This document shows, in pieces, positions 26,187 through 37,830 of a stretch of 64,000 nucleotides of DNA. Where the stretch lies: the NCBI GenBank assembly GCA_964474445.1, contig CAYYSJ010000002.1:183774-247773 (forward strand), written 5' to 3'. The notes below the pieces were generated by a model. That model saw only the letters and a program-made list of their open reading frames with translations, had not been told where the DNA came from and did not search any database. Position 1 is the first letter of the stretch; each line of letters starts with the position of its first letter. The stretch is from an uncultured Gammaproteobacteria bacterium (lineage in GTDB: Bacteria > Patescibacteriota > Microgenomatia > Levybacterales > UBA12049). The translations under genes and the position numbers were made by a program.

Positions 26187-28907
26187 ATGACATTGAATAT
26201 GGCATTTTCCTTTTTATCCAAATTATTTGATTCAAACGAAAAAGAAATTAAAAAGTTAGAGCCTCTTATTGCCGAAATTAATGCATTTGAACCTCGTATG
26301 GCAAAGTTAAAAGACACCGACTTTGAAAAAAAAACAAAAGAATTAAAAGAACGAGTTGCAGATGGAGAAGCTCTCTCATTACTGTTACCAGAAGCGTTTG
26401 CTTTAGTACGTGAAGCTTCAAAGCGTGCAGTTGGTCTTCGACATCATGATGTTCAGTTGATGGCAGCAATTGCTCTCTCTGAAGGAAAAATTGCAGAACA
26501 AAAAACAGGAGAAGGAAAAACCCTTTCAGCAGTTCCTGCATTGTACCTTCACAGTCTTTTGGGAAAAGGAGTTCATTTGGTAACAGTCAATGATTACTTG
26601 GCACGTCGAGATGCAGGATGGAATGGGCCCATTTTTACCTTACTTGGTCTTCGTGTCTCTGCAATTATTAGTGATAAATCATTTATCTATGACGAGACAT
26701 ATACGAATAAGGATGCTCAAGATTTTCGACTTATTCATCTTCGTGAAATAAGTAGACAAGAAGCATACCAATGTGATGTTGTTTATGGAATCAATTCTGA
26801 ATTTGGGTTTGATTATTTGCGTGATAATATGGCGCAAGACATTAATCAGATCGTACAGAGGGGACATTACTTTGCTATTGTAGATGAAGTTGATTCTGTG
26901 TTGATTGATGAAGCACGAACCCCACATATTATTTCGGCTCCTGATGAAGTTCCAACACAAAAATATTATGAATATGCAAAAGTTGTTGAGAGATTATCGC
27001 CTGATACTGATTATAAGATTGATGAAAAACTCAGAACTGCACACCTAACAGACCATGGTATTGCAAAGATTGAAAAATTATATGGTATTGTGGACATTTA
27101 TGAAAAAGATTTTGATACAGTCTACCATTTAGAGGCGGCACTAAAGGCGAGGACACTTTTTCATAAAGAAAAAGATTATATTGTCAAAGAAAATGAAGTG
27201 ATTTTGGTTGATGAATTCACTGGACGTCTTATGGTGGGGAGAAGACTCTCAGAAGGATTACACCAAGCAATAGAAGCAAAAGAGAATGTTCCTATTCAAC
27301 GAGAATCAAAAACACTAGCGACTGTTTCTTTGCAAAATTACTTTAGAATGTATGAAAAGCTTGCTGGTATGACAGGCACTGCAGTAACAGAGGCAGAAGA
27401 ATTCCATAAAATATATAACTTAGATGTTGTTGTTATTCCAACGCATCGTGAAATAACTCGAAAAGATGTGTCCGATGCAGTGTACAAAACAACTCGTGCT
27501 AAATTAACAGCAGTTGTTGAACAAATTGTAGAGGCATATAAAAGAGGACAGCCGGTACTTGTCGGGACAACCTCCATTGAAAAAAATGAGATTCTTTCAG
27601 AATTGTTAAAAAGACGTGGTATTAAACATGAACTATTAAATGCGAAAAATCATGAGCGGGAGGCTGAAATTATTGCTCGTGCTGGAGAAAAAGGAGCAGT
27701 TACTGTTGCTACAAATATGGCAGGAAGAGGGGTTGATATTGTTTTGGGAGGAGATAGTCCAAAAAATGAAGATGGTTCTCCAAATTATGGGAGTAAAGAA
27801 TGGAAAGAATGGGAAAGGCATAACAAGGAAGTAAAGTCACTGGGTGGTTTATTTATTGTTGGTACCGAACGTCACGAATCTAGACGAATTGATAATCAGT
27901 TACGAGGTCGTGCAGGAAGACAGGGAGATCCAGGGACAACGCGATTTTTCGTTGCGCTTGATGATGATATCATGCGACTTTTTGGTGGAGACACCATAGC
28001 AGGGCTGATGACCCGATTTAATATGCCAGAGGATATTCCACTTGAACACCCATTGGTAAGCCGTGCGATAGAACAAGCGCAAGTAAAAGTTGAAGGATTT
28101 AATTTTGATACCCGTAAACATCTGGTTGAGTATGATGATGTACTCAATAAGCAGCGTGAAATTATTTATGCTTTGAGACGAAAAGTTTTGGAAAAAGGAA
28201 ATGAATTAAGAGGAGACATCCTTGAGAAAATTGATGGAAGTATTGAGACACTAACCACAATGGCAATTGCAGAAGAAAGCGTTGGAGGTATAAGTAGTAA
28301 TCAAAAAATTGTTGGTGAATTTACGACAATCATTCCTTTTGATGAAGCTTCTCAAAAGCAGCTAGTTATGCAACTGGAGCAATTACACGCAAGTTCTGAA
28401 AAAGCTAATTTCTTAAAAGGTCTTGCAAAAGATATTTACGAAGGACGTGAGAAACAGGTAGGGAATGATATTATGAGACAAATAGAACGATTTGTGATGC
28501 TATCAGTTGTTGATACTTTTTGGATGGATCATTTAGATGCTATTGAAAATCTGAGACAGGGTATTGGACTTCGAGGATATGGACAACGGGACCCATTAGT
28601 TGAGTACAAGAATGAAGCATTTCGCATGTTTGAACAACTTCTTGGAGCAATTGATGGGGAAATAGTTCATCGTGTCTATAAAATTCAAATCCAAGGGCAA
28701 CCGCATGTGCATGAGAATCAGAGTAATCCAGTAAGAGAATATACAAATACTCAAGAAGAACATATCATGGCAAACCAGGATAAAAAACAAAAAAATCTCG
28801 ATCCTTTACCCCTTAACCCTAATAAAAGGCTCGGCCGTAATGATCCTTGCTGGTGTGGAAGTGGAAAGAAGTATAAGAAATGTCACTTGAGTAGTGATCT
28901 AGCTTAA
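26187..28907 (+). CDS. secA: preprotein translocase ATPase SecA
   Basis: 906 aa with DEAD-like motor motifs (GEGKTL; VDEVDSVLIDEARTP), preprotein cross-linking and helical wing/scaffold domains. C-terminal Zn-binding CWCGSGKKYKKCH. The start may be the ATG at 26199 (MAFSF...). Confidence 0.9.
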   Translation: MTLNMAFSFLSKLFDSNEKEIKKLEPLIAEINAFEPRMAKLKDTDFEKKTKELKERVADGEALSLLLPEAFALVREASKRAVGLRHHDVQLMAAIALSEGKIAEQKTGEGKTLSAVPALYLHSLLGKGVHLVTVNDYLARRDAGWNGPIFTLLGLRVSAIISDKSFIYDETYTNKDAQDFRLIHLREISRQEAYQCDVVYGINSEFGFDYLRDNMAQDINQIVQRGHYFAIVDEVDSVLIDEARTPHIISAPDEVPTQKYYEYAKVVERLSPDTDYKIDEKLRTAHLTDHGIAKIEKLYGIVDIYEKDFDTVYHLEAALKARTLFHKEKDYIVKENEVILVDEFTGRLMVGRRLSEGLHQAIEAKENVPIQRESKTLATVSLQNYFRMYEKLAGMTGTAVTEAEEFHKIYNLDVVVIPTHREITRKDVSDAVYKTTRAKLTAVVEQIVEAYKRGQPVLVGTTSIEKNEILSELLKRRGIKHELLNAKNHEREAEIIARAGEKGAVTVATNMAGRGVDIVLGGDSPKNEDGSPNYGSKEWKEWERHNKEVKSLGGLFIVGTERHESRRIDNQLRGRAGRQGDPGTTRFFVALDDDIMRLFGGDTIAGLMTRFNMPEDIPLEHPLVSRAIEQAQVKVEGFNFDTRKHLVEYDDVLNKQREIIYALRRKVLEKGNELRGDILEKIDGSIETLTTMAIAEESVGGISSNQKIVGEFTTIIPFDEASQKQLVMQLEQLHASSEKANFLKGLAKDIYEGREKQVGNDIMRQIERFVMLSVVDTFWMDHLDAIENLRQGIGLRGYGQRDPLVEYKNEAFRMFEQLLGAIDGEIVHRVYKIQIQGQPHVHENQSNPVREYTNTQEEHIMANQDKKQKNLDPLPLNPNKRLGRNDPCWCGSGKKYKKCHLSSDLA

Positions 28908-30454: not shown

Positions 30455-30922
30455 TTATTGAAAGGTATGTTCACCGTTAGCTTTTCTTTCTGCTGCTTCA
30501 ATGACTCGTTGTCCAACAACAATGTCGTGCTTTGTTTGTTCTGTTGCCTGAATTTTTAGCACTTCCTTAAAAGAAAACCATCTAAACGTATAATTGTTTT
30601 TAGGAAGAAATTCTTGAAAAGTTTCAGTGGTTGCATATAACAATGAGTGGCTATTTTTTGTTGTCTCATTGAGGTAAAAGTATATAGGATAAATGGTATC
30701 AATTTGAATACCTAAAAGCTTGAGTATACTATCCTTAAATATTACTTCTGGTTGTTCATGTTCTGTATATTCTTTTTCAAATAATACCCAAGGAGAAGTT
30801 GTAGGTTGGGGTCGTTGCAAGAGAATTTGTTGGGAAGGCAGATGGTATATAAATCCACTTGCATAAAATATTTTATGCATTATATAAAGTTTACCATAAA
30901 TTGAAAGACAATGCTGGTACAA
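30455..30922 (-). CDS. hypothetical protein, possibly degenerate Nudix-fold
   Basis: 155 aa. The segment EHEQPEVIFKDSILKLLGIQ aligns loosely to the Nudix box GxxxxxExxxxxxxREUxEExGU, but with the catalytic REx2EE replaced. Confidence 0.25.
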   Translation of the reverse strand: MYQHCLSIYGKLYIMHKIFYASGFIYHLPSQQILLQRPQPTTSPWVLFEKEYTEHEQPEVIFKDSILKLLGIQIDTIYPIYFYLNETTKNSHSLLYATTETFQEFLPKNNYTFRWFSFKEVLKIQATEQTKHDIVVGQRVIEAAERKANGEHTFQ

Positions 30923-31032: not shown

Positions 31033-31212
31033 ATGGTTGAAGATAAAACATGTCCTAAATGTAAAGGATCTATGAAAGAAGGAAGCTATACAGGAGTCAC
31101 TGTAGATTGGGAGAATAATAAAGAACCTGCTTTTTTAAAACAATCAGGGCGTAGAATAATTACGTATGCTTGTGAAATGTGTGGATATATGGAAAGTTAT
31201 GTTAAAAAATAA
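31033..31212 (+). CDS. small zinc-ribbon protein (59 aa), below the ORF-track length cutoff
   Basis: MVEDKTCPKCKGSMKEGSYTGVTVDWENNKEPAFLKQSGRRIITYACEMCGYMESYVKK. Two CxxC pairs (CPKC ... CEMC) with about 37-aa spacing. Divergent from the 30455..30922 gene. Confidence 0.4.
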   Translation: MVEDKTCPKCKGSMKEGSYTGVTVDWENNKEPAFLKQSGRRIITYACEMCGYMESYVKK

Positions 31213-31260
31213 GAAAGCTAATAGACTATAGATTTTCACTTTGACTAATCTCTTTTTATA

Positions 31261-31380
31261 CTGTCTCTTTTGTCTTATTTAGCCTTGAACTGAGACAGGT
31301 GTTATGACGACGAAAGGGTGCTAGATCGGTACCCCTAGCAAGCTTGTGCACCCTTCGTTGACCGTAGTCTCTATTTAGCT
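31261..31380. repeat. conserved non-coding hairpin element, copy A (upstream of TMTC-like gene)
   Basis: Shares ordered blocks ctgtctc / tttgtct / atttagc / tatgacga / cggtacccc with 37751..37830 at identical spacing (42 nt and 25 nt), about three-quarters identity ungapped by eye. Internal pairing CTGTCTC...GAGACAG and GACGACGAAAGGGTGC...GCACCCTTCGTTGACC. A terminal direct echo gtctctatttagct. Confidence 0.5.
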
Positions 31381-31687
31381 TAATTTTGCTTTCTAAACCC
31401 TCTATTTTTACAAAAAGTCTCGGACCGACTTGAAGCTAATTTTTATCCTCAATTTTTATTGAAATTTGCTCTGAATAACGAGGCTAGGGTTATGGGTTTT
31501 TATAGCCGTTAAACCTCTGATTCAAACCATGTGTGCTGATGGATTCTTTGCAGAATTAATTGGTACAAAGAATGAAAAAGTAATCAGGGAATATGTCCAT
31601 TAGTTTACCTATACGTCGTACAATTCAAGTAAGGCGGACTGAAAAATTCTTATTGAAAATCACCAACATTGAAGCTACCATTGGTAT

Positions 31688-33421
31688 ATGCAAGAACACG
31701 ATTTTTCTTTCAAAAACCCCTTTGTCCCCCTCACCAAAAATAAAGCTATTAGAATAATTGTTTCTATTGGATTAATTATCTTTTTCAATAGTCTTTTTAA
31801 TGGGTTTGTTTGGGATGACGGATCTTATATAATTTTTAATCCCGATTTTCAATCGTTCAATTTACTTCATCTGCTTAGCAAAAATATCTTTAATAGTTCT
31901 GGACAGTACAGACCAATCCCTGCGATTTACTTTGGAACACTTTTTATACTTTTTCATCAGAATCCCTTTTTTTATCATATCATGCAACTCTCAATTCATA
32001 TTGCGAATTCAGTATTAGTTTTTTTACTTTGTAAACATTTTTTCCCAAAAAAACTGTCTCTCTTTTTAAGCACGTTATTTCTTATCCACCCAATTCAAAT
32101 TGAGTCGGTATCATTTATTGCTTCATCAGACAATACGCTTTTTGTCTTCTTCGGTTTGCTTGCCAGTTTATTAAGTCTTACCAGATATATTACCCTCAAG
32201 AGATTTACTATAATTTCATTATTACTATTTGCATCGCTTCTCACAAAAGAGACTGGGATTCTTTTTTTCTTTCCAATTCTCTTCTATCGTTTTGTGGTTA
32301 AAAAAGACGTTAGGAAGTTTTTATTTTCAGGGTTGTGCATTCTTCTGTTATATGGAATGTTACGGTTCTACATAGGAAATGTACAATCTCCAACAATAAC
32401 ATATATCCCAATTGCAACAGTACCCTTTCTTACTCGTCTTATAAATATTCCGGTAATTCTTTTTTATTACATTAAAACTTTATTTTTCCCCTTATGGTTA
32501 TCAATTGATCAGCAGTGGGTTATTCGATCAATATCCTTTTCATCTTTTTACTTTCCACTTTTTATCGATTTCTTATTTTTTTCAACCCTTTGTATCTTTG
32601 GAATGATTCTTCATAAAAAGGGAAAGCAGTATTTTACAACATTCTTATTTTTCTTTATCTGGTTTATTATTGGCATTGGGGCTCATTTGCAAATCATACC
32701 CTTGGATATGACAGTTGCTGATAGATGGTTTTATTTTCCTTTTATTGGATTTATTGGAATCTTGGGGGTTGGGATAGAATACGTTAGTAAACAAAACGTA
32801 CAAGTTAAAAAATCAATCATTGCTATTGGAGTAAGTATTCTTCTCATTTTATCGTTAAGAACGATCATAAGAAATGCTAACTGGTTTGATAATAGGACGT
32901 TGTACTCACATGATACGCTAATTAACGACAATCATGAGCTCGAATTAAATTTGGCAAACGTGTATGTAAATGAACAAAATTATCCAGAAGCGCTAACGCA
33001 CGTTAAAAAATCAATTGAAATATTTCCAACAGAATTTAACTATAGCAATTTGGGCGGAATCTACGAAAAAATGGGTGATACAAAGAATGCAGAATCATCA
33101 TATCGAAAAGCTTTAACATTCAATAAGTATCCACCAGCAGGACATCGGCTAATCTTGTCATGGATTGATACAGGATTAGCATGGACATTACTTCTTAAAA
33201 AGGACTATAAAGATGCAAACAGGTTTATACAAGAAGCTTTACGAGATTTTCCGACATCAGGATTACTGTGGAGTGATCTTGCAATTAGTGAATATGAGTT
33301 AGGGAATAAAATGGAAGCGGTGTCATTCGTTAGAAAAGCAGTAAAATTTTCAAATGATCCTCAAATTGTTCTTATTTACAATAAGATCCTAACAGATCAA
33401 CCTTTTCAATTAAATCCTTGA
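31688..33421 (+). CDS. TMTC-like GT-C protein O-mannosyltransferase homolog (DUF1736/PMT-like membrane domain) with C-terminal TPR repeats
   Basis: 577 aa, about 11 TM helices. GFVWDDGSY (the DD motif of the TMTC/PMT GT-C catalytic loop) near the N-terminus. C-terminal ~150 aa contains TPR-like repeats (ANVYVNEQNYPEALTHVKKSIEIFP...GGIYEKMGDTKNAESSYRKAL). Confidence 0.65.
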   Translation: MQEHDFSFKNPFVPLTKNKAIRIIVSIGLIIFFNSLFNGFVWDDGSYIIFNPDFQSFNLLHLLSKNIFNSSGQYRPIPAIYFGTLFILFHQNPFFYHIMQLSIHIANSVLVFLLCKHFFPKKLSLFLSTLFLIHPIQIESVSFIASSDNTLFVFFGLLASLLSLTRYITLKRFTIISLLLFASLLTKETGILFFFPILFYRFVVKKDVRKFLFSGLCILLLYGMLRFYIGNVQSPTITYIPIATVPFLTRLINIPVILFYYIKTLFFPLWLSIDQQWVIRSISFSSFYFPLFIDFLFFSTLCIFGMILHKKGKQYFTTFLFFFIWFIIGIGAHLQIIPLDMTVADRWFYFPFIGFIGILGVGIEYVSKQNVQVKKSIIAIGVSILLILSLRTIIRNANWFDNRTLYSHDTLINDNHELELNLANVYVNEQNYPEALTHVKKSIEIFPTEFNYSNLGGIYEKMGDTKNAESSYRKALTFNKYPPAGHRLILSWIDTGLAWTLLLKKDYKDANRFIQEALRDFPTSGLLWSDLAISEYELGNKMEAVSFVRKAVKFSNDPQIVLIYNKILTDQPFQLNP

Positions 33422-33502
33422 ATTGTTAGAATTTGCTATATTGACATTAAATAAAACGTTACACTATAACTATAAACAATACCTGTTTAAATAAGAACTA
33501 TA

Positions 33503-36500
33503 ATGAAAGCAAAAATTGCTGGTATAGTTTTCTTCTTACTGATTATATTTTCAGGTTTAATTGCTCCAAAAATTGTCCTAGCTACAACATTTAATCTTTC
33601 AGGAAAAATTTCAGATTCTTCAGGAAATGGGATACCAAATGCAATAATCGCTGTCATTGATACGACAACCAATAATAGTGTTGCTAATACAACAAGTGAT
33701 GCATCAGGAAATTACACAGTAAGCGTTAATGGTGGTACGTATAATATTCAAGTAAACCCACCAGCAAACAGTAATTTTATATCCGCTATTGCGCCAAGTC
33801 GTTCAATTTCATCAGATACGATTGTTAATTTTATTCTTACACCCTCAGGAGTAGTTACTCTTAGCGGTCATATCTTAGGTCCTTTAGGAAATCCATTACC
33901 AAATCAAGTAGTGGGTATGGGTTTTAGTGGACATCCCATTTCTACAACAACAGATGCAAACGGCTATTATGCACTACAAACCACACCAGGTACACAATTT
34001 CTTGACTTTTATTCTCAATCTGCAAATGATCTATCCTTAAGTGTTCCTCAAAATTATCTTATTGAATCTACGAGTGCATCATATTCTATTACTCAGAATA
34101 CTGTTTTAGACGTAACCATCCCTGCTAAAAAAATAACGGTTCATGTGCAGGATGCGTCTAATAACCCAGTTAGCAATATAACCATAGGCGCTAGCCAAAT
34201 TAATACTAATAGTACAAACTTAACCATTCCAGGTGTATCTACTGCAATGCAAGGTGGTTCCTCATATAACTCTTCTAGTGGCCCAAAAACAGACACTTCG
34301 GGCAATGCAACACTATGGTTAATACCTGGAAACTATAATCTTTTTGCAACCCCTCCCAGCGGCAGTAATTTCTCTTTAACACAAGTGCCCAACATGTCCA
34401 TTACTGGGGATACCCAACAAACAATAACTCTAATACAATCAGTTACTCTCAGTGGACACATACATGACCCATTAGGCAATCCATTACCAGATCAAACTAT
34501 ACAGGTGGGTTTTAGTGGGAATACAATCACTAAGACTACCGATGCGAATGGATTTTATTCAATTCAAACTACGCCCGGAACTCAATTCCTTGAGTTTTTT
34601 GCAACTAATCCGTTGTCATTAAATGCACCTCAGCACTATCTCCTTGATAGCGGAGGACCAGTTTATTCCATAACCCAGAATACTGTTCTAGATGTTACCA
34701 TCCCTGCTAAAAAAGTAACAGTACATGTGCAAGATTTTGCAAACAACCCTGTTAGCAATGTGATAATAAATGCCAATCAACTTGGTAATACAAATATAAA
34801 CCTACCGGGTGTTCCGAACGTCATGATAGGTTCTTCTTCTTATGGGAGTTATGGAACTGGTCCAGCAACTGACTCATCAGGGAACGTTACTTTATGGTTG
34901 ATAGCTGGAAACTATACTTTTACTGCAAAGCCTTCTAGTGGAAGTAATTTTTCGCAAACTCAACTTACTAACATATCCATTACTGGGGATACCCAACAAA
35001 CAATAACTTTGATACAGCCAGTTACCCTTAGCGGACATATTTATGGTCCACTAGGAAACCCGTTGCCAAATCAAACTGTTGGAATGGGGTTTAGTGGACA
35101 TCCAATTACTGCAACTACCGATGTGAATGGATATTACTCGCTACAAACAACACCTGGAAACAATTTCCTTAATTTTTATCCAGTAACCACAAATAGTTTT
35201 TCATTAAACGCACCCCAGTACTATCTTATCCAAACACAAGCTGCATCATATTCTATTACTCAGAATACTGTTTTAGACGTAACCATCCCTGCTAAAAAAA
35301 TAACGGTTCATGTGCAAGATGCATCAAATAATCCTGTTAGCAATGTAGTTATAGGTACTAGTGAAAATGGTAACACAGGTGTAAATCTTCCTGGTCTCCC
35401 TTCTGGATTATTAACAGCTTCTTCCTCTTACGGAAATCGTGGACTTGGTCCCGCAACAGATGCTTCTGGAAATGTTACTTTATGGTTAATACCTGGAAAC
35501 TATAATCTTTTTGCAACCCCTCCCAGCGGGAGTATCTATGCACAGTTTATATTATATAATATATCAATAACCAATGATCAAACAGAAATAATTTCTCTTC
35601 AGTTTGTCCATGCTGCACCAGTTACAACAGCTATTTTAACAACCCGTTTATCTGATGAAACATACTCAGATCCAACAACTGTAAGTTTGTCAGCTGTTGC
35701 TTCATCTGGATTTACAGTGACCAATACCTATTACACAGTAGATGGAGGAGCAAAACAAATATATACCACACCATTTACAGTATCAGGAAGTGGTTCTCAT
35801 ATGATTACCTATTGGTCTATTGATAGCTTAGGTGTTTCTGAGACTCCAAACACGAAATCTTTTTCAATTGATGACCCACCAAAAATTTCCTCAATTCCCG
35901 GTGCAACAATAAATGAAGGAAGCACATATACAGCGACAGGATCATTCACTGATACAGATTCATCGTCCTGGACAGGAACAGTTGACTACGGAGATGGTCA
36001 AGGGACACAACCATTAACAATAAATCCTGATAAAACATTTACTCTTTCTCATCAATATCTTGACAATAAACCTAATAATGCTCCATATACGGTAACAGTC
36101 AATATTACCGATAACCAGGGAGCAGGAAGTACTGTGACAACGTCAGTTGTTGTTCTTAACGTAACGCCGTCTGTTGGCTCCATCACTGTCCAATCAAATC
36201 CTGTTATCCAAGGAAGTCCCTTCTCTGTTAATTCCGTAATATTTTCTGATCCGGGAGTACTGGATACCCATACAGCGATATGGAATTGGGGAGATGGAAC
36301 AACAAGTCCAGGAACTGTTGTTGAAACAAATGGTTCAGGATATGTTTCAGCAACAGATCATGTATACTCTGCTGTTGGCACATACCAAATAACACTAACT
36401 GTTACTGATAACGACGGAGCACCAGGTACATCAGTATTTCAATACGCAGTTGTCTATCAACCATCAAGAAGTGGTCTTTTCTCAGGACATAGTATATTTG

Positions 36501-36895
36501 CTTCTCCCAACGGAGCAGATTTGCAAAATCCAAATGTAACTGGGAATGTGCACTTTGCAGTTGATATCAAGTATGCAAACAATAGTAATGTACCAACAGG
36601 TAAAGTTTCTATGGATTTTTCAAGTGGAAAGATTAGCTTAATAGCAACTTCATTTAGGTATCTGGTGATAAATGGCACACAAGCTATCCTGACAGGATCA
36701 GGAACTGTTAATGGAACCTCGGGATATAGCTTCCTTGTATCTGGAATTGATGGTACACAAACAGGAACAGGATACATAAGATTCCAGATTATAGATCCAG
36801 CAGGTAATGTTATCTATGATACACAAACTGGAGCAGCAGTGAATGCAGCACCTACTACAGCAGTGACGGGTGGCATGATTGTTGTGCATAATTAA
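33503..36895 (+). CDS. large secreted cell-surface protein with carboxypeptidase-regulatory-like (Cna-B-type) domains, three ~195-aa tandem repeats and PKD domains
   Basis: 1130 aa with signal peptide MKAKIAGIVFFLLIIFSGLIAPKIVLA. Repeated TLSGHI(L/H/Y)GPLGNPLP(N/D)Q...TDANGYY units, then PKD motifs (VDYGDGQGT...; WNWGDGTTSPG...TVTDNDG). S/T/N-rich throughout. Confidence 0.7.
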   Translation: MKAKIAGIVFFLLIIFSGLIAPKIVLATTFNLSGKISDSSGNGIPNAIIAVIDTTTNNSVANTTSDASGNYTVSVNGGTYNIQVNPPANSNFISAIAPSRSISSDTIVNFILTPSGVVTLSGHILGPLGNPLPNQVVGMGFSGHPISTTTDANGYYALQTTPGTQFLDFYSQSANDLSLSVPQNYLIESTSASYSITQNTVLDVTIPAKKITVHVQDASNNPVSNITIGASQINTNSTNLTIPGVSTAMQGGSSYNSSSGPKTDTSGNATLWLIPGNYNLFATPPSGSNFSLTQVPNMSITGDTQQTITLIQSVTLSGHIHDPLGNPLPDQTIQVGFSGNTITKTTDANGFYSIQTTPGTQFLEFFATNPLSLNAPQHYLLDSGGPVYSITQNTVLDVTIPAKKVTVHVQDFANNPVSNVIINANQLGNTNINLPGVPNVMIGSSSYGSYGTGPATDSSGNVTLWLIAGNYTFTAKPSSGSNFSQTQLTNISITGDTQQTITLIQPVTLSGHIYGPLGNPLPNQTVGMGFSGHPITATTDVNGYYSLQTTPGNNFLNFYPVTTNSFSLNAPQYYLIQTQAASYSITQNTVLDVTIPAKKITVHVQDASNNPVSNVVIGTSENGNTGVNLPGLPSGLLTASSSYGNRGLGPATDASGNVTLWLIPGNYNLFATPPSGSIYAQFILYNISITNDQTEIISLQFVHAAPVTTAILTTRLSDETYSDPTTVSLSAVASSGFTVTNTYYTVDGGAKQIYTTPFTVSGSGSHMITYWSIDSLGVSETPNTKSFSIDDPPKISSIPGATINEGSTYTATGSFTDTDSSSWTGTVDYGDGQGTQPLTINPDKTFTLSHQYLDNKPNNAPYTVTVNITDNQGAGSTVTTSVVVLNVTPSVGSITVQSNPVIQGSPFSVNSVIFSDPGVLDTHTAIWNWGDGTTSPGTVVETNGSGYVSATDHVYSAVGTYQITLTVTDNDGAPGTSVFQYAVVYQPSRSGLFSGHSIFASPNGADLQNPNVTGNVHFAVDIKYANNSNVPTGKVSMDFSSGKISLIATSFRYLVINGTQAILTGSGTVNGTSGYSFLVSGIDGTQTGTGYIRFQIIDPAGNVIYDTQTGAAVNAAPTTAVTGGMIVVHN
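33854..35600 (+). repeat. three tandem intragenic repeats (~580-590 bp each) within the surface-protein gene
   Basis: Units start near 33854, 34442 and 35021. Units 1 and 3 share 78-nt (34073-34150 vs 35242-35319) and 49-nt (34315-34363 vs 35480-35528) identical DNA stretches. Unit 2 is more diverged. Confidence 0.75.
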
Positions 36896-36915
36896 GACAG
36901 GAGAGGTCTATATAA

Positions 36916-37701
36916 ATGATGCAAAGATTAAAAAATAACAAACACGTAAAAACATATATCAAGGCAATTACGCCTCCTTATTCAAAACATGATATTCCCC
37001 ATATCTTAGGAACACTTGTAGCCGTTATTATTTTGTTTGTTCTTTCCAATATTACTCTCAAGCATATCTTTGCATCAAATACGAGTATGACTCCTCCAAC
37101 AAAACCTCAGATACTCGTGGGTACTGAGCACCCACTCCGTATCCCCTTTACTCATGCTGAACAAGGGACAGTATCTATATATTGGCTCTCATCAACTGAT
37201 CCAATAGGCGTTTCAGGATATAAGATATATAGAAATGGGAGTAAAATAGGAGAAACAAATGATACATCTTTTAAAGATAATGGAATTTCAGGAAGTGTCA
37301 CTTATGCAATTGAGGCCTATGATTCTGCGGGAAATACTTCTTCATCATCACTTCACATTAATCTTCCAAAAGCCTGGACAGCAAATGTTTCCCCAAACGA
37401 TTCTGTTATCTCAGGCTTTGTTTTAAACAAAACCAACAATGATCCAATAGCAAATACAACTATCACTACTGCAGAAGGCAAAACAATTCATACTGACCAA
37501 AATGGCTATTTCTATTACATCTCTCTAAATAACAATATTCAGTCGGTACAACTAACATTTAATGCCAAAAGTTACACTAGTGATACAGAAAATATCCAAC
37601 TCAAAAGTGGACAAAGTGTTAATCAAACAATTTACTTGACTCCACAACCAAATGTAGGAAACATGATTATTGATACTCTACTTAAGATTTTTCGCAAGTA
37701 A
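36916..37701 (+). CDS. membrane-anchored protein with fibronectin type III-like and carboxypeptidase-regulatory-like domains
   Basis: 261 aa, N-terminal TM (ILGTLVAVIILFVLSNITL). Fn3-like GVSGYKIYRNGSKIGETNDTSF and Cna-B-like TDQNGYFYY. Confidence 0.5.
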   Translation: MMQRLKNNKHVKTYIKAITPPYSKHDIPHILGTLVAVIILFVLSNITLKHIFASNTSMTPPTKPQILVGTEHPLRIPFTHAEQGTVSIYWLSSTDPIGVSGYKIYRNGSKIGETNDTSFKDNGISGSVTYAIEAYDSAGNTSSSSLHINLPKAWTANVSPNDSVISGFVLNKTNNDPIANTTITTAEGKTIHTDQNGYFYYISLNNNIQSVQLTFNAKSYTSDTENIQLKSGQSVNQTIYLTPQPNVGNMIIDTLLKIFRK

Positions 37702-37750
37702 ATTTAACCGCTTACAAATTATTAGATTGCTTAAAGTAAATGCCTTTTCA

Positions 37751-37830
37751 CTGTCTCATTTGTCTCATTTAGCTTCAGATTGAGTCAGAAGCTATGACGA
37801 TAGAATGGGTCTGGACCGGTACCCCCAGAG
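37751..37830. repeat. conserved non-coding element, copy B (upstream of histidine kinase gene)
   Basis: See copy A. Same block order and spacing. Contains ctgtctc...gagtcag (one mismatch to the copy-A stem) and the shared ccggtaccccc core. Confidence 0.5.

Follow-up and report, generated by a model that had tools for sequence, protein, structure and literature searches.

The question raised by this locus is why two short intergenic segments, one upstream of a TMTC-like glycosyltransferase gene and the other upstream of a MEDS-PAS histidine kinase gene, should resemble each other. The segments lie in a stretch of 64,000 nucleotides (nt) of contig CAYYSJ010000002.1 (assembly GCA_964474445.1, positions 183,774 to 247,773 of the forward strand), deposited under the name of an uncultured Gammaproteobacteria bacterium and placed by GTDB in the Patescibacteriota (Levybacterales, UBA12049). 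The whole of this stretch is referred to below as the window, and the two segments as copies A and B. A preliminary inspection of the letters (the sequence-only reading) had taken them for a hairpin-forming non-coding element, acting either as a leader that controls both transcription units or as a small non-autonomous repeat bracketing a block of surface-protein genes. Here, copies A and B are identified as members of a non-coding family that extends across the Patescibacteria and lies outside Rfam 15; the pair is not a local oddity, and both copies are ordinary members of this family. As to function, we tentatively favor an autonomous small regulatory RNA unit, with the invariant tandem repeats as its functional site, and give this reading a probability of about 0.4.

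The resemblance between the two segments is borne out by an ungapped alignment of 31258-31340 with 37748-37830 (+ strand), in which 59 of 83 bases are identical. The AT-rich flanks do not align, in keeping with the dissimilarity already remarked on in the sequence-only reading. The 22-nt core TGTCTCNTTTGTCTNATTTAGC is exact in both copies, and the downstream complementary box (+27/28) and 40-nt 3' domain, described below, stand in register. Within the window, CTGTCTCWTTTGTCTYATTTAGC matches only 31261-31283 and 37751-37773, and spacing of the type TATGACGA-N16-CGGTACCCC is found only at 31303-31335 and 37793-37825, even at 3 mismatches, while 100 dinucleotide-preserving shuffles gave no match to either pattern at the same tolerance. 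An nhmmer search of the 64 kb window with a two-copy profile found no third copy. A weaker similarity had also been proposed to continue downstream through ctaggg and cttgaag blocks; these occur in reversed order in copies A and B and are not colinear, and the extension is therefore treated as chance.

The wider family was found through a scan for exact matches to the core TGTCTCNTTTGTCTNATTTAGC, with one genome taken per species, which recovered it in at least 118 stretches of species-representative genomes. The sequence-only reading had made its case depend on further copies in related genomes, and more than 100 are present. Among the matches listed, the credibly named carriers are nearly all Patescibacteria, including Microgenomates classes, Saccharibacteria, Peribacteria and Parcubacteria. 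The named groups comprise Levy-, Shapiro-, Woese-, Gottesman-, Curtiss-, Roizman-, Chisholm- and Beckwithbacteria, together with genomes named 'Microgenomates' or 'Patescibacteria group', Saccharibacteria, Peribacteria, Giovannonibacteria and one Parcubacteria-group genome. With a profile built from 104 members other than the window copies, the E-values are 5.5e-20 for copy A and 7.1e-19 for copy B. A profile lacking the core (+24 to +100, other genomes) still detects copy A (31287-31356, E 4e-9) and copy B (E 1.5e-6), and nothing else in the window. The core was found in none of 2.9 million viral contigs. Since more than 100 species-level genomes of several classes carry the 22-nt core without a single change, the element must be under strong selection.

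Some 44 loci of the family (loci are designated below by L numbers) carry labels from outside the Patescibacteria, namely uncultured Gammaproteobacteria, Pseudomonadales, Oligoflexia, Nevskiaceae or Methanoperedens (e.g. L002, L004, L005, L006 and L109). Neither their G+C content (30-43%, mean 36.6%) nor their element subtypes set these loci apart from the named Patescibacteria. The labels on these element-bearing contigs are likely placeholders or the result of mis-binning.

The anatomy of the element was established from column conservation and feature counts over 106 family members. Read 5' to 3', a member may begin with an upstream box; it continues with a GAGACA box and a T-tract plus TATA(C/G), followed by a pair of tandem TGTCTCATT boxes, a TGAGACA box and a 40-nt domain. 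This ordered conservation spans 100-170 nt in a single orientation, and members vary in length only at defined points, through a hairpin-like insert in the box loop and over 10 nt ahead of the 3' domain. The optional upstream box ATATCAAACTAYATC is a direct repeat with 10-nt spacing, and all 35 of its occurrences in ~900 kb of family loci lie 34-118 nt upstream of a core. Its reverse complement, TGATATAGTTTGATATAT, contains two extended -10-like motifs (TGnTATAnT) directed away from the element; where copies with this box were compared by eye with the table of open reading frames (ORFs), about 60% have a divergent gene starting 60-110 nt beyond. The GAGACA box, ~20 nt before the core, is exact in 36 of the 106 members and degenerate in many more, with two such boxes in Saccharibacteria.

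Directly before the core, columns -12 to -1 are conserved across the 106 members with the consensus cCcTTTTTATAc, which places the T-tract plus TATA(C/G) at a fixed distance. Saccharibacteria have CCCTTAAGTA in its place, a few genomes have ..GCC..ATGCGG, and the subtype to which copy B belongs has CCTTTTCAC. In the Curtissbacteria-type loci L051, L067, L085, L107 and L126, an insertion of ~46 nt is present ~50 nt upstream of the core. It consists of two small hairpins (ATCG-YTTG-CGAT and GCTCTTG-N5-CAAGAGC) that part the T-tract/TATA from the core; TATA flanks it on both sides, resembling a tiny palindromic insertion with target duplication, and it is kept in several species.

The tandem TGTCTCATT TGTCTCATT boxes are followed by TAGCC or TAGCT, and then by the downstream complementary box at +27/28, or at +38 in members with a small extra hairpin. 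The commonest form of this box is TGAGAC (48 members); TGATAC and TAAGAC are found in 14 members each. The 40-nt domain GTTATARNGAY-N5-GGKTCYAGACC-N5-TGCTCMGC is present in 80 of the 106 members, and some members, including copy A, L091 and L020, have a third module (..CAGCAAG..GCAC..GTGACCGT..TCTATTTAGC). Multiplication of parts also occurs, with two complete elements 187 nt apart (838 and 1025) before one gene in L114, and a doubled or tripled 40-nt domain in L089, L012, L016 and L074.

Copy A has the standard make-up of the family. Its upstream part (31240-31261, + strand) consists of the degenerate box TTTGACTAA (family consensus TTTGAGACA) followed by the T-tract plus TATA(C/G), CTCTTTTTATAC, directly before the core. 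The core segment (31262-31284, +) contains the tandem boxes TGTCTCTTT / TGTCTTATT, then TAGCC, and holds the 22-nt family core. The downstream complementary box TGAGACA (31291-31297, +) is able to pair with either upstream box, and is followed by the 40-nt 3' domain GTTATGACGACGAAAGGGTGCTAGATCGGTACCCCTAGC (31301-31339, +), placed by the nhmmer alignment of the 80 members, and by the third module AAGCTTGTGCACCC..TTGACCGT..TCTATTTAGC (31340-31379, +) common to L091 and L020. Copy B belongs to a subtype also seen in L021 and L070, in which the T-tract plus TATA is replaced, here by GCCTTTTCAC (37742-37751, +). Its core (37752-37774, +) reads TGTCTCATT / TGTCTCATT, then TAGCT, its downstream box TGAGTCA (37781-37787, +) has one mismatch to TGAGACA, and its 40-nt 3' domain AGCTATGACGATAGAATGGGTCTGGACCGGTACCCCCAG occupies 37790-37828 (+) in the nhmmer alignment and is supported by the core-less profile match. 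Each core begins 48-49 nt past the end of a + strand gene, a 59-aa zinc-ribbon ORF with its stop at 31212 before copy A and a CarboxypepD_reg protein gene with its stop at 37701 before copy B, and both cores lie in unusually long intergenic regions (475 and 358 nt).

The 3' domain raises the alternative of a protein-coding remnant or small ORF, for in many members its reverse strand would translate to AEHxGL(D/E)PFxxYN. However, this reverse frame is closed by stop codons directly upstream and has no start codons, codon periodicity is absent (column entropy 0.94, 0.89 and 0.53 for the three phases), and the forward frames hold stops, copy A reading MTTKGC*. The coding alternative is thereby effectively refuted, and the element is non-coding.

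The relationships among copies bear on another alternative, namely that the element is a relic or target of mobile DNA (a miniature element, mobile promoter or att site), with copies A and B as the borders of an acquired surface-protein cassette. Copy A aligns with L091 over 153 nt (97 bits) and with L020 over 147 nt, compared with 87 nt (58 bits) for copy B. It is thus nearer to L091 and several other genomes than to its neighbor, and the two copies are therefore old paralogues and not the product of a recent local duplication. Subtypes follow taxonomy, and orthologous loci keep the same neighbors, pointing to vertical inheritance; the element is low-copy (one to a few per genome) and mostly vertically inherited. 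A mobile origin would account for direct copies that are often 5-8 kb apart (in the window, CAZJUH01 and CAYPZT01), for degenerate further copies in family loci, for neighbors that are often of accessory type (GIY-YIG, ABC transporters, metal ATPases), for the large serine recombinase genes that adjoin the 3' domain in three loci, and for a GC skew in the window that is negative exactly between the copies. By contrast, it is opposed by the vertical pattern just described, by the absence of the core from viral contigs, by the direct orientation of the copies in every multi-copy case, and by the lack of inverted termini, target duplications or inverted partners in any 8-kb locus and of a consistently linked transposase or integrase. 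The genes between paralogous copies elsewhere are of mixed orientation and share no common theme, which speaks against a cassette defined by direct repeats. A transposon end or miniature inverted-repeat transposable element was rejected on these grounds, the earlier suggestion of a small non-autonomous repeat bracketing the block is not supported, and mobile DNA of any kind is considered very unlikely.

In paralogues from one genome (L033 twice, and L080), the likeness begins at about -12 and stops where the 3' domain ends; this delimits the minimal unit and fits a self-contained one.

The neighboring genes were examined next to the element's orientation in 86 classifiable loci, in which the element lies between divergent genes in 38, co-directional genes in 25 and convergent genes in 15, and is antisense to both neighbors in 8. 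The downstream gene is thus co-oriented in 63 of the 86 (73%) and oppositely oriented in 23, and ~20 loci have no plausible co-oriented ORF within 350 nt. Fifty-two downstream proteins fall into 47 Pfam families, none of them common to more than three, and no conserved neighboring protein was found either upstream or downstream, there being nearly as many families as loci. Small ORFs of the GIY-YIG nuclease family (80-126 aa) lie directly downstream on the same strand in L026, L046, L047 and L096 (+68 to +219) and in six further loci, GIY-YIG being the sole protein family met in as many as 10 loci.

These data bear on the possibility that the element is a cis-acting 5' leader, riboswitch-like or protein-controlled, of the downstream mRNA, which in the window would be that of the glycosyltransferase-TPR operon and of the MEDS-PAS kinase operon. 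Both window copies are indeed co-oriented with the next downstream gene, as the sequence-only reading had stated, and so are the majority in the family, including the 38 copies in divergent, promoter-type intergenic regions. A same-strand ORF begins 60-450 nt downstream in 77 copies, and the tandem pair in L114 and the multiplied 3' domains in L089, L012 and L016 are typical of leaders. On the other side stand the loci that face an opposite-strand gene or lack a co-oriented one, the absence of any theme in downstream function, a highly variable distance to the start codon, and the lack of covarying stems or of a consistent expression platform. In the window itself, 230-350 nt of unrelated, unconserved sequence separates each element from the next start codon, and could carry the downstream genes' own promoters. 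An obligatory 5' leader or promoter-operator would not tolerate gene-less or opposite contexts, whereas a self-contained unit does. With downstream genes neither always co-oriented nor functionally coherent, the element does not behave across the family as a riboswitch or cis leader should, and we regard the leader explanation as unlikely. The specific control of the surface cassette or the kinase that had been proposed is not upheld, since the flanking genes are unrelated in ~100 related loci. Copies A and B are linked to the glycosyltransferase and surface-protein block, or to the kinase, by adjacency alone, and the element is a warning against reading such arrangements as gene-specific switches.

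The autonomous RNA unit that we favor draws support from these same contexts, that is, from the unrelated neighbors, the convergent and antisense settings and the loci without a co-oriented ORF. In such a unit, the promoter-proximal part would come first, consisting of the T-tract plus TATA(C/G) or its subtype-specific substitute, and would give rise to a + strand transcript of roughly 90-170 nt, whose 5' end would bear the two tandem UGUCUCAUU boxes. The downstream UGAGACA box, joined in longer versions by one or two upstream GAGACA boxes, may pair with and mask the UGUCUCAUU boxes, and the 40-nt sequence-conserved domain would follow, sometimes with the third module. The near-invariant tandem boxes would be the working part, either bound by a conserved protein or acting as the seed that recognizes a conserved RNA target, with the complementary boxes modulating access to them. 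More tentatively still, the family may represent an undescribed superphylum-wide class of regulatory RNA in Patescibacteria, or the RNA half of an RNA-protein system, with the tandem UGUCUCAUU repeats engaging a conserved cellular partner.

Features of the 3' end in some loci are in line with a transcript. Canonical hairpin plus T-run terminators, as possible transcript ends, lie 10-60 nt past the 3' domain in L060, L061, L066, L081 and L092. L002, L021 and L112 each carry, on the opposite strand, a large serine recombinase gene (503-525 aa) whose end falls within the 40-nt domain or immediately beyond it; in L002 the final ~12 recombinase codons are antisense to this domain. Integrating elements that target conserved RNA genes show such an abutting arrangement, and the recombinase genes at the 3' end are therefore counted in favor of an RNA unit.

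The pairing potential of the element provides further evidence for an RNA. The hairpin-capable 5' part of a repeated non-coding element, as first perceived in the sequence, is supported: the short stem CTGTCTC...GAGACAG is real in copy A and has one mismatch in copy B. The proposed long stem around GGTACC (ACGACGAAAGGGTGC / GCACCCTTCGTTGAC) appears in the minimum-free-energy fold of copy A, but is absent from copy B and, by eye, from L091 and L020, and is private to copy A. Across the family, the helix between box 2 and the downstream box is formed in most members. In 27 sequences of the short class, 93.5% of its cells pair, as do 86% of the cells of the whole named structure compared with 30-46% in slid controls, and RNAalifold recovers the box helix in the +38 class. 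Substitutions tend to be wobble-compatible on the + strand. Every TGTCTTA variant checked faces a partner box (TGAGACA or TAAGACA) with which it gives G.U or A-U, and the variants of GGTT..GACC and of the mini-hairpin (L097, L108 and L059) also fit the + strand.

Against an RNA unit weigh several results on structure and transcription signals. The covarying stems for which the sequence-only reading had proposed a test were not found: the boxes are complementary, and their covariation is no better than in shuffles (score 0.099 versus 0.088, with 81 of 500 shuffles equal or higher). RNAalifold gives 0 pairs on the 27 short-class sequences, about 30% of members have a mismatch in the box helix (TGATACA, TAAGACA), and folding energies are only ~1.5 standard deviations below shuffles, equally on both strands. 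Neither RNAalifold nor mutual information yields a consensus structure for the 3' domain, whose strongest mutual-information pairs are non-Watson-Crick, subfamily-linked changes; one subfamily has also lost the domain's T-arm-like hairpin GGKY..RACC. Terminator-like sites show no overall enrichment, being about as frequent on the element strand (18 of 94 loci) as on the reverse complement (17 of 94). As a putative -10, TATA(C/G)T (conserved from -5 to 0 by 85 of the 106 members) lacks a -35 hexamer at the 16-18 nt of the sigma-70 rule, which may not hold in Patescibacteria; TTGACA-like hexamers are enriched only 9-11 nt upstream, where they are the GAGACA box, and the putative -10 itself is replaced in several subtypes, including that of copy B. 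Finally, a targeted scan of a metagenome collection found a base other than C at position 4 of box 2 in only 9 contigs, and of 8 independent variants at this position, 2 are Watson-Crick-compensated, 2 form G.U and 4 are mismatched. The tandem boxes thus appear to be constrained as sequence beyond any need for pairing, with their partners free to drift.

This last result would also suit a DNA-level operator array, in which a 7-10-bp duplex motif (AAATGAGACA / TGTCTCATTT), present four to five times and in both directions about a TATA-like element, would be bound by a conserved Patescibacteria DNA-binding protein, the remainder of the element providing further protein sites. Almost invariant tandem boxes with varying partners fit sequence-specific recognition better than mere pairing, and the absent covariation, the fixed distance of the T-tract plus TATA, the positions of the downstream box in ~11-bp steps (+30/31, +41, +52), and the strict association of the upstream ATATCAAACTAYATC box, itself a 10-bp-spaced direct repeat, with the element point the same way. 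However, an operator leaves unexplained why conservation continues in order, and with + strand polarity, over more than 100 further nt, and for a quarter of the copies there is no gene that it could control. Transcription-factor genes show no consistent linkage to the element, the upstream partner spacing is unphased (-18 to -20, -27, -31, and ~-66 with the insertion), and the window contains no dispersed single boxes that would hint at a regulon. The 9-bp spacing of the tandem boxes is unusual among known tandem-repeat binders, which also counts against an operator. A DNA operator is accordingly thought improbable as a full account of the element, and a mixed model, with the boxes as operator and the downstream part acting as RNA, is possible.

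Known identities were also considered. None of the 4227 families of Rfam 15 matches the window at the gathering threshold, the two regions giving only noise at E up to 10, and no Rfam match was obtained on the element in eight diverse related loci. The best signal does not fall below E 0.4, and weak matches to C/D-box small nucleolar RNAs reflect an AUGAYGA-like string in copy B. ARAGORN finds no tRNA, transfer-messenger RNA or tRNA-like structure at the elements, and no tRNA gene in the whole 64-kb window. The resemblance of GGTTCNAGACC..GCTCCGCCA to a tRNA 3' half has no complementary 5' strand within -600 to +800 nt in 49 of 53 loci. A 6S-like closing stem between the upstream box and downstream sequence is not enriched over control. 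An intrinsic terminator was rejected, none being present at either copy and half of the family members following a divergent gene, and LexA control is unlikely because no lexA or recA-type genes occur among the downstream genes. Searches of the literature by sequence string and by topic found no description of the element or of a conserved Patescibacteria regulatory RNA.

The remaining features of the window concern its genes and composition. The window is bacterial, with a SecA gene at 26187-28907 and ~36% G+C. Upstream of copy A lie a 155-aa ORF without Pfam match (30455-30922, - strand) and, just before the copy, the 59-aa zinc-ribbon ORF (31033-31212, +), with weak matches to Zn_ribbon_TFIIB/DUF6487. 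The gene for the 1130-aa CarboxypepD_reg/PKD surface protein includes three tandem repeat units of ~580 nt at 33853-35571, with 64-77% identity. The window derives from a metagenome, the kinase gene being on record in one 6-kb Logan contig from run SRR12266073. The GC skew, negative between copies A and B and positive on either side, switches near 31.2-31.5 kb and 37.8 kb, and the AT skew is strongly negative over the N-terminal half of the glycosyltransferase gene. This pattern over 31200-37800 may reflect the composition of genes for membrane and secreted proteins, or a foreign or rearranged block.

Patescibacteria (Candidate Phyla Radiation) account for a large share of bacterial diversity and have tiny genomes, and their gene regulation is little understood. 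The element offers a concrete handle on a lineage-wide function, and for annotation it marks long 'empty' intergenic regions of these dense genomes as functional. If the RNA reading is true, it would be the first broadly conserved small RNA known in Patescibacteria beyond the housekeeping RNAs. The element is directly testable in Saccharibacteria, which bear their own subtype. Genetic tools have been reported for some Saccharibacteria, and a preprint on the TM7x transcriptome states that validated small RNAs are lacking in this strain.

The element shares traits with several known systems. Like the pneumococcal BOX and Neisseria Correia elements, it is intergenic and modular with optional modules, has possible promoter activity and occurs in several copies per genome; unlike these species-restricted, high-copy elements with inverted termini, it is low-copy, lacks such termini and is conserved across Patescibacteria classes. 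With tandem-heptad operators such as the CtsR box (GGTCAAA-NAN-GGTCAAA) and the Pho box, it has in common direct heptamer repeats beside a -10-like element, and its upstream box is likewise a direct repeat with 10-bp spacing. By contrast, its period is 9 bp instead of 10-11, a further 100 nt are conserved, there is no coherent downstream regulon, and some copies have no downstream gene. The protein-sequestering RNAs CsrB and RsmZ resemble it in conserving a repeated short motif within variable surrounding structure, but the element has just two tandem repeats plus complementary boxes, its GGA motifs are not conserved, and its motif UGUCUCAUU fits no known binding site.

Trans-acting small RNAs of the RybB and OmrA/B type differ from the element in that its conserved stretch is a tandem 9-nt repeat, invariant across a superphylum, and that it has a second conserved domain of 40 nt without clear structure; moreover, most copies have no canonical terminator, and a target and chaperone are only conjectural. 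The likenesses to this type comprise a hairpin-masked 5' seed, a short autonomous unit in variable intergenic contexts, a most conserved stretch at or near the 5' end, one to a few paralogues that are sometimes clustered, and a terminator in some loci. We class the element as a new family of a familiar general kind, that of bacterial small RNAs or regulatory elements, with an unusual make-up and a remarkable invariance of sequence.

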